Assembly (NCBI GenBank): GCA_022844165.1
Contig: JALHMH010000004.1
Location: 64,001 to 128,000 of the forward strand
From: Lysobacterales bacterium
GTDB taxonomy: Bacteria; Pseudomonadota; Gammaproteobacteria; Xanthomonadales; SZUA-5
Length of the DNA stretch: 64,000 bases
Direction: 5' to 3'
Below, one piece after another: positions 32,772 to 36,353 of this stretch. The number at the start of each line of letters is the position of its first letter. Within the stretch, counting starts at the first letter, position 1. A program made the position numbers and the translations under genes. The notes under the pieces were generated by a model that worked only from the letters and a program-made list of their open reading frames with translations, did no database searches and was not told the DNA's origin.

Positions 32772-33665
32772 ATGCTGGCGATCGAAAGCACGAAGCTCAC
32801 CCGACGCTTTCCACAAGGAGGCGGAATCAGCGGCCTGGATTTAGCGGTGCCGACCGGCAGTCTGTATGGATTCGTGGGACCCAATGGCGCGGGTAAGACG
32901 ACAACCATCCGTCTGCTGTTGGGCTTGCTTCGCCAACAGAGCGGAGCAGTGCTGATCGACGGTGCACCCGCCTCGCGCACGACCCGCGCAAAACTCGGGG
33001 CTCTCATCGAGTCACCATCCGTTTACGGCCATCTCAGCGGCTACGATAACTTGGACGTGACGCGCCGCTTGCTCGACAAACCGCGCGCTGCAATTCACGC
33101 GGTGCTGGATCGGGTTGGGTTGCGTTATGCGGCTCACCAACGTGCGAGCGACTATTCGCTTGGCATGCGCCAGAGGCTCGGTTTGGCCCTGACCTTACTC
33201 GCGGCACCATCGATCCTAATCCTCGATGAACCGTCCAACGGGCTCGATCCTCAAGGCATCGCGGACTTACGCGTACTTCTGCGTAGCTTCGTTGCCGAAG
33301 AACGCATGACGCTGATGGTCTCTTCTCACCTTCTGAGTGAGGTCGAGCAGACGGCGACGCACATCGGTGTTCTGTACCGCGGCGAATTGAAGTTCCAAGG
33401 TGCGATCACCGAGTTGCTTGCGAAGGCCCGGCCGTTGGTTTATGTGGGCTGCGATCGCCCGACCGAGGCAGCGGCGCTGCTGCACGGTGCGGGTATCGAT
33501 GCAGTACAGGTCGACTCGCGGCTGCGAATCGACAGCGCAGTGCCGCCCCATGTGGTGAATCGCCGTCTGGTCGACGCCGGCTTGCGCGTCAACGAGCTGA
33601 TCAGCGAGCGGCCATCGCTCGAATCGATGTTCTTCGGTCTGACGCAAGCTGCAGAAGGAGGCTGA
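32772..33665 (+). CDS. ABC transporter ATP-binding protein (BcrA/LanF-like)
   Basis: GPNGAGKTTT, IESP..Y.HLSG.DNL, YSLGMRQRLG, LDEPSNGLDP, SSHLLSEV. Confidence 0.9.
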   Translation: MLAIESTKLTRRFPQGGGISGLDLAVPTGSLYGFVGPNGAGKTTTIRLLLGLLRQQSGAVLIDGAPASRTTRAKLGALIESPSVYGHLSGYDNLDVTRRLLDKPRAAIHAVLDRVGLRYAAHQRASDYSLGMRQRLGLALTLLAAPSILILDEPSNGLDPQGIADLRVLLRSFVAEERMTLMVSSHLLSEVEQTATHIGVLYRGELKFQGAITELLAKARPLVYVGCDRPTEAAALLHGAGIDAVQVDSRLRIDSAVPPHVVNRRLVDAGLRVNELISERPSLESMFFGLTQAAEGG

Positions 33666-33667
33666 CA

Positions 33668-34432
33668 ATGATGAGTCCCTATGGGCGTGCGCTTCAGGCC
33701 GAGATACTGAAATTGAGAAACACGTTAGCCTTGCGCTTGACTCTGATTGCACCCTTGGTTGTGGTGGGTCTGGTGACTGTGCAATGGCTGATGCAAGGTC
33801 GCTCGCCAGTACCGAGTGATGCACTGCCAGCGCGTGTATGGGCAGATTTTGCGGGCGCCGTTCTGGGCATTTTCGTGATACTGATGTTGCCGCTTTACGT
33901 GACCCTGCAGTCGGCGCTGCTGGCGCAACTGGAGCACCAGGACCGGCAATGGAAACACCTTTTGGCATTGCCGCTGCCGCGTTCGAGCTACTTCGTTGCG
34001 AAGCTGATGGCGCTGGCCCTGCTGGTGGCGCTCAGCATGTTGGTGTTGACAGTGTTGATTCCCGTTGTAGGCAGCCTCTTGCATCTGCGGGCATCGATAC
34101 CCATCGCAGGCTGGCCAGACCTGATCGACATCGCGCGTTCGCTTGGTCGGGTGTACTTATGTGCGGCGCTGCTCATCGTGTTGCAGGCATGCATCGCACT
34201 TTATTGGAAGAGCTTTACCGTAGCGGTTTCGATCGGAATGAGTGCAACGGTGATGGGTTTCATCATTGGTCAATCAAGCGAATTTGGCCCGTGGTTTCCG
34301 TGGACGATGCCCATCCAACCTCTGACGCGGCATCCTGCGCCGGAGCAAGTCATGCTGATCAGCAGCCTCGCCGCGGTGCTCATGGCCATTCTGGCTGCCT
34401 ATGAGTTCGAGCGCCGCGAGTTTTTCGATTGA
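33668..34432 (+). CDS. ABC-2 permease (LanE/LanG-like)
   Basis: AEILKLR, EH...WKHLLALP......AK, multiple TMs, PWFPWT.P. Confidence 0.85.
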   Translation: MMSPYGRALQAEILKLRNTLALRLTLIAPLVVVGLVTVQWLMQGRSPVPSDALPARVWADFAGAVLGIFVILMLPLYVTLQSALLAQLEHQDRQWKHLLALPLPRSSYFVAKLMALALLVALSMLVLTVLIPVVGSLLHLRASIPIAGWPDLIDIARSLGRVYLCAALLIVLQACIALYWKSFTVAVSIGMSATVMGFIIGQSSEFGPWFPWTMPIQPLTRHPAPEQVMLISSLAAVLMAILAAYEFERREFFD

Positions 34433-34456
34433 TCGAACCGGGGCCGCAGGTATGAT
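34429..34456 (+). promoter_or_regulatory. Putative sigma-70 promoter for the SEC-C gene
   Basis: TTGATC-N16-TATGAT, about 40 nt upstream of ATG 34496. Confidence 0.45.
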
Positions 34457-34495
34457 CGCGCTGCCCATCGTCGGGCAGTTGGCTGGAGCATTGCC

Positions 34496-34735
34496 ATGAA
34501 TACCGAATTTAAAGATCAGGCGAGCTTTTGAGGTCACGAGCAAACGCCGCAAAGGATTCCCGTCTGAAACCCAGGTGAAGCGTGGACCGCGCTTCGTTCA
34601 CATCGACAAAGAACTGCTGGAGAAGCTCGGTCGGAATGACCCGTGCCCGTGCGGTTCCGGGAGGTTGTTTCAAACGCTGTTGTCTGATCAGCGGTAGCTT
34701 TTGATGGCGTCAATCGCCAAGACTATGTCCGTTAA
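34496..34735 (+). CDS. SEC-C motif zinc-binding small protein requiring three +1 frameshifts (78 aa)
   Basis: SD GGAG 34485-34488, ATG 34496. Segments [11 protein letters not shown] / [47 protein letters not shown] / [10 protein letters not shown] / [10 protein letters not shown] are joined at TTT-TGA (34526), TTT-CAA (34668) and TTT-TGA (34699). Confidence 0.7.
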
Positions 34736-34739
34736 CGGG

Positions 34740-34772
34740 AGGACCGCGATCGGAAGCGATCGCGGTCCTTTT
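34740..34772 (+). terminator. Intrinsic terminator
   Basis: AGGACCGCGATCG-GAAG-CGATCGCGGTCCT-TTT: 13-bp perfect stem followed by a short T-run, between convergent genes. Confidence 0.85.
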
Positions 34773-35167
34773 CACGCGATCTGGCGCAACCAGTCTTGCA
34801 GGTTGTAGTAATTACTGACTCGGCTGATTTTCCCGTTGTCGATGTCAAAAAACGCGCCACCGGGCAACCGATACTGCTGGCCGTTTGCAGCCGGCAGACC
34901 TACGTCTGTGGTCAAATATTGACCGATCACGACGTATTCCGCCGCAGCATGTTTGCCATCGTCGGCGGCGAGGATACGAATATCTGTCAAGTGCTCCAGA
35001 TAGCTCACGCGCATTCGCTGCAAAAAGTCCGCGAATGCGGCCCGGCCGATTTCTCGTGCGCCCTGGTTCAGATCGTGGGCAACGTTGTCAGCCAGGAGAT
35101 CGAGCATGCCTTGCCAATCGGCGCGATTGAATGCTTCGTAGTAAACCGCAATCAGTGCTGCTGACAA
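34772..35167 (-). CDS. Ketosteroid isomerase-related / SnoaL-like (NTF2) protein
   Basis: YYEAFN..DW.GML..L...V.HD.NQG..E.G...F..F, AAAEY.V.G.Y..TD.GLP.A.GQ.Y.LP.GAFF, YYNLQDW. Confidence 0.85.
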   Translation of the reverse strand: MSAALIAVYYEAFNRADWQGMLDLLADNVAHDLNQGAREIGRAAFADFLQRMRVSYLEHLTDIRILAADDGKHAAAEYVVIGQYLTTDVGLPAANGQQYRLPGGAFFDIDNGKISRVSNYYNLQDWLRQIA

Positions 35168-35182
35168 TTCGACCTCTTGCTG

Positions 35183-36121
35183 TTAGAACGCGTAGCCAAA
35201 CTCCTCCAAGAATCGTGCCTTGAACTGAGTCAAGTCGAATCGTTGGTTCTGCGTGCCGGCGTGTTCTATCTTGATGGCGCCCATCAATGAGGCAATTCGG
35301 CCGGTCGTTTCGTAGTCGAAATCGTTCATCAGGCCATAAATGAGCCCGGCACGATAGGCGTCGCCGCAGCCGGTGGGGTCGAGTACCTGCTGTGCACGGG
35401 CCGACGGAATGTCAATGACACCGTCGCGCGTGTGCCATAGCGAACCTTCGCCACCGCGGGTCACGATGTAGGCGCTGACCTTCGATGCAATCTGAGCGGG
35501 CGACCAGCCGGTGCGTTCGGTCAGCAGTTGCGACTCGTAGTCGTTAACCGACACGTACGTGGCCTGCTCAATGAAGGCGCGGAACTCCTCGCCATTGAAC
35601 AGTGGCAGCGCCTGGCCAGGATCGAAGATGAAAGGAATGCCCATCGATTTGAACTCGGCGGCATGCTGCAGCATGGCATCGCGGTTGTCCGGCGCCACGA
35701 TACCGAATGCCGCACCGCGCACATCCTTGACGTGCGCGCCGTGGCTTTGCGTCATCGCCCCGGGATGAAACGCCGTGATCTGGTTGTCGTCCAAATCGGT
35801 CGTGATGTATGCCTGCGCGGTGTAGTGGTCTGGCAATTCGCGCACGCAGCGCAGATCGACGCCCATGGCCTCGAAGTGTTGTCGATACGGCTCGAAATCG
35901 CGACCCACAGAACCAAAAGGCACCGGATGACCGCCGAGGAGCTTTAAGTTGTAGCTGATGTTGCCAGCGCACCCGCCAAACTCGCGGCGCAGTTTCGGTA
36001 CATAGAAGGCAACGCTGAGCATGTGCACTTTATCGGCCAGGATGTGGTTTTTGAAGCGATCCTCGAACACCATGATGGTGTCGTACGCGAGCGAACCGCA
36101 GATCAGGGCTTGTTTGGACAT
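35183..36121 (-). CDS. PfkB-family carbohydrate/nucleoside kinase (adenosine kinase-like)
   Basis: ICGSLAYDTIM, FGGCAGNI, DPGQ, NDYE, DPTGCGDAYRAG. Confidence 0.9.
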   Translation of the reverse strand: MSKQALICGSLAYDTIMVFEDRFKNHILADKVHMLSVAFYVPKLRREFGGCAGNISYNLKLLGGHPVPFGSVGRDFEPYRQHFEAMGVDLRCVRELPDHYTAQAYITTDLDDNQITAFHPGAMTQSHGAHVKDVRGAAFGIVAPDNRDAMLQHAAEFKSMGIPFIFDPGQALPLFNGEEFRAFIEQATYVSVNDYESQLLTERTGWSPAQIASKVSAYIVTRGGEGSLWHTRDGVIDIPSARAQQVLDPTGCGDAYRAGLIYGLMNDFDYETTGRIASLMGAIKIEHAGTQNQRFDLTQFKARFLEEFGYAF

Positions 36122-36353
36122 GGTTTTCTTGTTGAGCGTGATGCCGCGGAGACTAGCAGGGTTGCACCTTTGGCGACGTCCGGTGAGCGACGTACCGATG
36201 CCGCGAACGCCAAGGTAAGCCCTGCGTTTCATCCGGGAGGTCCGAATAACCTGCTGCGCGGGCTGATGGGATTTGCCAATGTTGCTCGCGCTTGTCGAAT
36301 CTACGTGAATCGCGCGTTATGATCGCGACATCTGCAAGCCGGGGATACGCTCG

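Follow-up and report, generated by a model that had tools for sequence, protein, structure and literature searches.

A family of small SEC-C genes with candidate serial +1 ribosomal frameshift sites in bacteria

Known +1 recoding systems and the small gene

To our knowledge, and prfB aside, very few chromosomal bacterial genes need +1 ribosomal frameshifting for their expression. Here we analysed a stretch of 64,000 nucleotides (nt), hereafter the window, from a Lysobacterales bacterium (assembly GCA_022844165.1, contig JALHMH010000004.1, positions 64,001 to 128,000 of the forward strand), which carries at its positions 34429–34772 a small gene encoding a basic protein with a SEC-C metal-binding motif. 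This stand-alone gene, provided with its own promoter, Shine-Dalgarno (SD) sequence and terminator, probably needs three successive +1 ribosomal frameshifts to yield its full-length product, and the predicted requirement would be a trait of the whole family to which it belongs. Serial +1 frameshifting had been proposed in a first-pass annotation of this DNA, and the comparison of family members presented here strongly supports that proposal.

Several features of the small gene recall prfB. A short first open reading frame (ORF1) would be followed by a +1 slip of the peptidyl-tRNA on NUU_U at a UGA, which gives access to the main ORF; the second of the three sites is preceded, at a distance of 3 nt, by an internal SD-like run; and a few relatives of the small gene use CTT_TGA or CTT_Y. 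However, the P-site codon is UUU instead of the CUU of prfB, most relatives have a sense codon in the zero frame (CGA, CAA), a gene may contain three or more sites against one in prfB, and most sites of the SEC-C family lack an SD-like element. Furthermore, the product is no release factor, so the feedback logic of release factor 2 (RF2) does not carry over.

Other +1 shifts on the same codon have been described in bacteria and in eukaryotic viruses. According to the part of the review PMC5009743 available to us, bacterial ribosomes slip to +1 with particular ease on UUU_Ynn, even if no stop codon follows, and the influenza cassette is UCC_UUU_CGU, while UUU_CGN appears as the +1 motif of plant amalgaviruses in the accessible part of PMC5052127. 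The (UCC_)UUU_CGN cassette of influenza A PA-X (PMC3498833, likewise a partial source) and of the amalgaviruses is identical to the one found here, many relatives of the small gene having TCC TTT CGA at site 1. Nevertheless, the viruses in question infect or belong with eukaryotes, and each has a single site that yields an alternative product, whereas the present gene is bacterial and the shift would be obligatory for its only meaningful product. The same portion of PMC5009743 describes bacterial +1 shifts on UUU_Y for FseA, YopN-TyeA and the argI error site; in the case of FseA, encoded by msi172/msi171 of a Mesorhizobium integrative and conjugative element, the shift keeps a potent regulator scarce. 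Unlike the family studied here, these are single sites in unrelated proteins with a narrow taxonomic range. The only genes with several shifts cited in that portion of the review are those of Euplotes, mitochondria and retroviruses. The presence of more than one +1 shift per gene is shared with Euplotes and some mitochondria, but shifting is there a genome-wide property of decoding, whereas here it would be confined to a single family of small genes in bacteria that are otherwise ordinary.

Regarding the protein, the SEC-C knuckle (PF02810) is the same as that of the SecA C-terminal tail, YecA and YchJ. In contrast, the N-terminal part of the small gene's product matches no curated family, and none of those three proteins is known to need recoding. 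In the open-access literature we found no description of frameshifting in SEC-C proteins, including in Antonov 2013 (PMC3711429) apart from its supplementary cluster tables, nor did we find a chromosomal gene of bacteria in which +1 shifts follow one another in series.

Frame breaks and selection across the family

When TTTY was read as a single step from the ATG at 34496, exactly three steps, at F11, F58 and F68, gave a product of 78 amino acids. These are the same three +1 breaks and the same stitched protein that the first-pass annotation had put forward, and its coordinates for promoter, GGAG, ATG, frame breaks, TAA and hairpin proved correct to the base. No ordinary ORF longer than 40 amino acids was listed on the gene's strand within the interval. 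The features of the locus, in positions of the window, are the following:

34429–34456, + strand: sigma-70-like promoter TTGATC-N16-TATGAT, the sole match in 34300–34900 (shuffle mean 0.2)
34485–34488, + strand: SD sequence GGAG, 7 nt 5' of the ATG at 34496
34496–34528, + strand: ORF1 leader of 11 codons in frame 0, ending AGC TTT, with its zero-frame stop TGA at 34529–34531
34526–34529, + strand: candidate shift site 1, UUU_U, with UGA as zero-frame A-site codon
34530–34670, + strand: segment B, 47 codons in frame +1, supported by entropy and pN/pS
34659–34664, + strand: internal SD-like GGGAGG, 3 nt upstream of the UUU of site 2
34668–34671, + strand: candidate shift site 2, UUU_C, with CAA as zero-frame A-site codon; the SEC-C motif is completed here (F then KRCC)
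34672–34701, + strand: segment C, 10 codons in frame +2, then TGA at 34702–34704
34699–34702, + strand: candidate shift site 3, UUU_U, with UGA as zero-frame A-site codon
34703–34735, + strand: last segment and TAA (34733–34735), in the regained original frame, with the conserved motif [DE]G.NR..Y. then stop
34737–34772, strand not assigned: terminator hairpin with U-run, common to the convergent gene at 34772–35167 (− strand)

Close relatives keep this arrangement. A DNA search of 39 related genomes recovered the whole small gene in nine others, at 70–80% identity. The frame of CPCGSG..F and that of FK.CC are offset by +1 (site 2) in 10/10 sequences, the window included, and at site 1 the ATG is in frame with a TTT followed by TGA or CGA in 9/9 sequences covering the region, the leader indels among them being of 3 or 6 nt. 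Site 3 reads TTT-TGA or TTT-CGA and needs +1 in seven of the ten, while three (L008–L010) have one base fewer and run straight into the same C-terminal motif. Since the same offsets recur in homologous DNA of other genera, the frame pattern lies far beyond chance. The comparison of homologues suggested by the first-pass annotation thus revealed breaks that are not random in position: from one homologue to the next they fall on the same Phe codons, in the form TTT-T or TTT-C.

The analysis was extended to 83 distinct members, 81 of which, from at least nine named phyla, were classified automatically, with frames read around the invariant KRRKGFPSE block. At site 1 (leader F then E), an ATG with an SD sequence was found solely in the frame that needs +1 in 55/81 members. 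Among the remainder, three were continuous, four need −1/+2 on T7 runs, two were ambiguous and 17 remained unassigned, the last being mostly TTT-YGA with an ATG lacking a recognisable SD sequence. The three continuous members belong to Verrucomicrobiota and have an in-frame ATG and CTT instead of TTT. Leaders span 8–19 codons and end in [C/S/F]-F, and an unshifted ribosome would reach a stop within 12 codons in 54 of the 57 cases listed. Site 2 (F then K.CC) requires +1 in 35 members and is continuous in 46, whereas at site 3 (F then DG) 53 need +1, 24 are continuous and four could not be assigned automatically, two of which proved continuous and one +1 when read by hand. For none of the 81 members could continuity be demonstrated at sites 1, 2 and 3 together.

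Few tetranucleotides occur at the shifts. The 55 shifts at site 1 comprise 41 TTTC, 12 TTTT and two that were mis-registered by an insertion; the 35 at site 2, 32 TTTC, two TTTT and one other; the 53 at site 3, 31 TTTT, 13 TTTC, three CTTT and six others. TTT followed by T or C therefore accounts for 131/143 shifts, with three more at CTT_T, the P-site codon of prfB, and the base skipped is a purine in a single case. The putatively skipped base is hence constrained to be a pyrimidine, and a conserved NUU plus pyrimidine is what re-pairing of the peptidyl-tRNA one base forward requires. The first-pass annotation had made the same argument for tRNA-Phe from the three sites of the window. Continuous members, within the first 72 loci, have mostly TTC at site 2 (36/44) and TAC or TAT at site 3 (12/19).

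The zero-frame A-site codon follows from the protein sequence. In the relatives it is CGA in 37 cases and TGA in 11 at site 1, CGA being likewise the commoner at site 3, and it is CAA at site 2, rarely UAA, UAG, CAG or CCG. Coding fixes the next two bases as GA (Glu/Asp) or AA (Lys), which leaves UGA or CGA as the zero-frame codon at the first and third sites and, mostly, CAA at the second. CGA is reportedly read slowly, through A:I wobble. As CGA outnumbers TGA at sites 1 and 3 in relatives, the earlier idea that the gene senses the level of RF2 is unlikely to hold as a general logic.

Some members depart from the three-site scheme, and the phenomenon is wider than the first-pass annotation, confined to the window, could see: a cross-phylum family with further shift sites. 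Four Acidobacteriota (L042, L062, L067 and L083) have the shift at the Leu codon that directly follows the two Cys codons (CTT_C or CTT_T), replacing the Phe of site 3, and their CTT P-site codon is the same as that of prfB. Besides sites 1 and 2, locus L124 (genome G079) shows an extra +1 site, TTT_T, at the Phe of R-F-VHGD, and locus L123 (genome G093) another, ATT_C with CGA in the zero frame, before EKLGRND. In six Planctomycetota (L039, L052, L054, L056, L064 and L084) the leaders end in T7 and the offset of the start needs −1 or two successive +1 shifts, L052 having ATA where the other T7-leader Planctomycetota have ATG; transcriptional slippage is possible in this group.

Taken together, nearly all members, whatever their phylum, have a short ORF1 ending at UUU_YGA, from which a +1 shift is predicted to lead into the body, and further candidate NUU_Y sites have been repeatedly gained and lost. 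The near-universal architecture at site 1 argues for selection.

Constraint on the coding sequence changes frame where the proposed shifts lie. Entropy by codon position in segment B was 0.48/0.43/1.45 (72 members). After site 2 it was 0.81/0.69/1.24 in the proposed frame versus 1.17/0.81/0.69 in the old one, and after site 3 it was 0.76/0.61/1.37 versus 1.34/0.76/0.61, so that each body segment displays the low-low-high pattern of codons, displaced by one base on passing site 2 and again on passing site 3. The 15 nt of the leader before site 1 gave no clear codon periodicity (1.10/1.16/1.27), and this test offers no argument in favour of the leader. The ratio of nonsynonymous to synonymous change (pN/pS), calculated for the 15 members in which site 2 and site 3 are both shifted, was 0.22 for segment B, 0.33 for C and 0.45 for D (after site 3) in the proposed frames, compared to 1.0–1.8 in the other frames (1.7 for B, 1.2 for C and 1.0–1.5 for D). 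Judged by these substitutions, each body segment is under purifying selection in its own frame, a claim that does not include the leader. Because pN/pS is low only in the proposed frames, the trans-frame body is shown to be the selected product and its interpretation as a pseudogene is contradicted. The coding-type conservation that the first-pass annotation had wished to see in all four segments was therefore present in the three body segments, the leader being without clear periodicity.

Proposed mechanism and competing explanations

According to the mechanism that we propose, peptidyl-tRNA-Phe would sit on UUU in the P site while the zero-frame A site offers a stop or a poorly read codon; in the window this codon is UGA at the first and third sites and CAA at the second. 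Re-pairing of the tRNA one base forward, on UUY, would then let decoding go on in the +1 frame. At site 2, the GGGAGG located 3 nt upstream would probably pair with the anti-SD sequence and push the shift, as in prfB. Ribosomes that failed to shift would stop at once at sites 1 and 3 and after eight more codons at site 2, where the unshifted product would lack two of the four Cys ligands. The output of complete protein would accordingly equal the product of the three shift efficiencies.

An SD-like stimulator is credible only at site 2. In the 15 nt that precede this site, 11/35 shifted and 0/46 continuous members have an SD-like run of 5 nt or more, while such runs were found at 6/74 site-1 and 3/53 site-3 contexts. 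The prfB gene of the window's own genome (contig C10, about 110.9–111.0 kb, locus L130) carries the canonical +1 site AGGGGG-TTT-CTT-TGA-C, and the SD spacing of GGGAGG-TTG-TTT-C at site 2 matches it. Of the three SD-like runs that the first-pass annotation had assigned, one to each site, only GGGAGG is thus convincing; CAGGCG and AGCGGT are weak, and relatives do not keep them as SD-like elements.

A number of observations weigh against programmed serial frameshifting. The members compared include kin and are not independent, so that the counts given above overstate the independent observations. No obvious re-pairing is available at CTG_C (L047, L057), AAG_G (L074) or ATT_C (L123). Two members, L045 and L066, carry a second indel by which the C-terminal frame is regained with no shift at all, as is classically seen when a frameshift mutation has been compensated. 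Along the family tree the state of the sites changed at least 12 times at site 2 and at least 13 times at site 3 among the 81 members, a rough count of lower confidence, given that the tree rests on 138 nt and is poorly resolved. No conserved stimulator was found at sites 1 and 3, and the folding energy upstream and downstream of sites 2 and 3 was the same in shifted and continuous members. The consensus structure obtained with RNAalifold, in which site 1 is paired with site 3 and a hairpin lies just 5' of site 3, received no compensatory support (covariation term −0.91, double changes in 3/37 pairs). The TTT-CGA dicodon is not avoided in the long ORFs of the genome (76 observed versus 84.1 expected), and the bare motif can therefore not shift efficiently; three weak sites in series would consequently yield almost no product unless local stimulators act. 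CAA, the codon at site 2, makes up 36% of the Gln codons of the genome and so is neither rare nor evidently slow. Finally, no public RNA sequencing run containing the locus was listed.

Two structural details accompany these observations. In L045 and L066 the C-terminal DG..R..Y has returned to the frame of segment B, so their unshifted product would have both ends without the Cys pair. The RNAalifold pairing joins 34523–34532 (GCUUUYGAGG) with 34699–34708 (UUUYGAYGGC), corresponding to columns 64–73 and 239–248 of alignment A4; it encloses the body of the mRNA and contains many G-U pairs.

These difficulties make a first alternative a real one, although we regard it as unlikely; it differs from programmed frameshifting in purpose and not in mechanism. 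The same +1 slippage would take place at UUU_Y, but the T-run insertions at Phe codons, being frequent one-base mutations, would be merely tolerated, or favoured only for lower expression, and spontaneous slippage would provide traces of protein in a 'corrective' or dampening manner. The probable inefficiency of a shift at a dicodon that the genome does not avoid, the lack of conserved stimulators at sites 1 and 3, the frequent changes of state at sites 2 and 3 and the compensating indels of L045 and L066 would all fit such dampening, and the part of the review PMC5009743 at our disposal recognises a class of compensatory frameshifting as well as FseA, whose expression is dampened by +1. Neutral drift does not predict, however, that site 1 should be present in nearly all members across phyla, with a leader of 8–19 codons and the ATG in the −1 frame. 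SD-like runs, moreover, stand only beside shifted alleles of site 2.

It is much less probable that the frame is corrected in the RNA, by polymerase slippage or editing, instead of on the ribosome. Transcriptional slippage is conceivable for the T6–T7 runs of some Planctomycetota leaders, where the offset is even −1/+2. Nevertheless, the runs comprise 3–4 T in the window and in most members, far under the lengths known for polymerase slippage, and the skipped base is often C, NUU plus pyrimidine being the prediction of tRNA re-pairing. We infer that the ribosome, and not RNA polymerase, would make the shift.

The locus could also be taken for a decaying pseudogene of a SEC-C protein, as it shows three frame breaks in 240 bp and no ORF above 40 amino acids on its strand, and annotation pipelines leave such loci unannotated or truncated. 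We consider this highly improbable. The breaks fall at identical codons in many genera and phyla, the shifts are all in the + direction and on NUU_Y, and pN/pS stays between 0.22 and 0.45 in the own frame of every body segment; moreover, promoter, SD sequence, ATG and terminator are intact, an internal stop occurs in only 1/81 members (L070), and the window's genome holds a single copy of the family, with no intact paralogue.

The first-pass annotation had asked for the T-runs to be checked on raw reads. A Logan contig built independently from a public run spans 34478–34728 with 0 differences and 0 gaps; the depth is low (2.8–4), and the source is possibly the metagenome sample of the window itself. 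A second Logan contig covers site 1. Every T is kept at the three sites, and all three T-runs accordingly stand. Indel errors of sequencing or assembly, for which the location of all sites in or beside T-runs of a metagenome assembly of such depth might speak, are hardly credible in view of this identity, of the same extra bases in dozens of unrelated assemblies, isolate genomes among them, and of a run of just three T in the TTTC of site 2. In the same metagenome runs, contigs of other organisms match the conserved core only (loose ends at 34524–34567), and one of them extends upstream with its own leader end, ...AGCTTTCAC, which identifies another homologue with a TTT_C site.

If programmed serial frameshifting is confirmed, the family would constitute a second widespread bacterial +1 recoding system, offering natural shift sites with sense codons in the A site (UUU_CGA, UUU_CAA) for mechanistic work. 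It would include a very conserved protein, probably associated with ribosomes or RNA, whose dosage is tied to the maintenance of frame, and it would expose a systematic error of annotation. The family comprises hundreds to thousands of tiny genes over many phyla, almost every member needing at least one +1 shift and many two or three, with new sites that keep arising at NUU codons.

The protein, its family and its surroundings

The product is a basic protein of 78 amino acids with a SEC-C (SecA-type Cys4) metal-binding knuckle near its C-terminal end. The stitched sequence passes the Pfam model PF02810 with 38.2 bits against a cut-off of 20.4, over residues 46–62, and contains the four ligands C-x-C ... 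C-[C/H]. As anticipated in the first-pass annotation, the motif is complete only after the second +1 shift, since it exceeds the Pfam cut-off only when read through site 2 and the unshifted frame lacks the last two Cys. Members of the family are only about 65–80 amino acids long and have a basic and conserved N-terminal part of their own. No Pfam match was obtained outside the SEC-C motif, NCBIfam gave motif-level matches only, far under the cut-offs, so that no model was reached, and no Rfam family matched the locus at E <= 1. Sequence matches in the PDB were restricted to peptides of YchJ-C and of the SecA metal-binding domain (MBD). AlphaFold2 applied to a natural continuous homologue (P0003, 64-row alignment) returned a mean local confidence (pLDDT) of 61 and a predicted template-modelling score (pTM) of 0.34, the knuckle alone being ordered.

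The SecA MBD has been reported to bind SecB and ribosomes (bioRxiv 10.1101/613315, in the part of it accessible to us). An action on the ribosome comes to mind for two reasons, the reported binding of SecA-type MBDs to ribosomes and the prediction that the protein, when alone, is mostly without order. For a mini-protein that is very conserved, basic and disordered, and whose synthesis would be gated by +1 slippage, a function at the ribosome that includes feedback may be supposed. As to purpose, our guess is that the gene might make the level of a protein that binds ribosomes or RNA depend on how readily the cell slips by +1, or might keep that level very low. A bolder view, which we consider doubtful, is that the family acts as a cross-phylum, self-reporting 'frameshift meter', in which the small basic SEC-C protein on the ribosome would restrain or respond to the +1 slippage of stalled ribosomes, its own synthesis being gated by one to four shifts. 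Such a meter would form an RF2- or antizyme-like feedback loop, the steepness of which could evolve through gain and loss of NUU_Y sites, and in bacteria it would be the functional counterpart of factors that maintain the reading frame, such as the eukaryotic and archaeal Mbf1.

The family is large and broadly distributed. A search with the stitched protein returned 2031 proteins at E <= 0.01 among 2049 candidates, and many homologues with a continuous ORF align over all three junctions (F-E, F-K and F-D) at 64–80% identity. An exhaustive profile search yielded 907 representative clusters at E <= 1e-10, and a scan of one genome per species gave at least 588 confirmed genomic loci; the 80 loci listed among these belong to Planctomycetota, Verrucomicrobiota, Acidobacteriota, Pseudomonadota, Cyanobacteriota, Deinococcota and others. 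Carriers that can be cultivated include Massilia pinisoli JCM 31316, Luteimonas soli KCTC 42441, Pelomonas cellulosilytica P8, Andreprevotia chitinilytica DSM 18519, Stieleria magnilauensis and Acidobacteriaceae KBS 96. Within the window's order the occurrence is patchy, with family-level matches in 25/199 genomes. Many ORFs of the family in databases stop exactly at site 2 or 3 or have long false N-terminal extensions, and the genes of this family are systematically missed, truncated or falsely N-extended.

Other attempts to place the family were less informative. A mobile-element origin was rejected, as the family is present in 2/72,556 plasmid records and was not found in phage records; the two plasmid records, CP114554.1 and CP114562.1, are replicons of Candidatus Manganitrophus with no annotated feature beneath the match. 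The ESM Atlas lists SEC-C clusters with viral members and nothing more specific. Fused or longer forms were discarded as a hint to function, since the 128 longer ORFs have no recurrent extra domain and look like read-through or false N-terminal extensions. No conserved neighbourhood emerged, the commonest flanking family being present at 4/72 loci within ±1.5 kb, and none of the window's flanking genes is kept beside the small gene in other genomes.

The signals that delimit the gene are well preserved. The −10 box is retained in close relatives as TATGAT or TATGCT (L002, L003 and L006), and the block formed by GGAG or GGAGG and CCATG is conserved in the 9/9 relatives in which the region is covered. 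The terminator consists of a 16-bp hairpin beginning 1 nt after the TAA, with a perfect 12-bp core from 5 nt after it, and has a stability of −28.8 kcal/mol (z = −5.7), equalled in 0/200 shuffled sequences. Upstream of the small gene, on the + strand from 32772 to 34432, lie an ABC transporter ATPase and an ABC-2-type permease, and downstream, on the − strand at 34772–36232, a convergent gene of 131 amino acids is followed by an ORF for a PfkB-like kinase, these names having been read from the translations.

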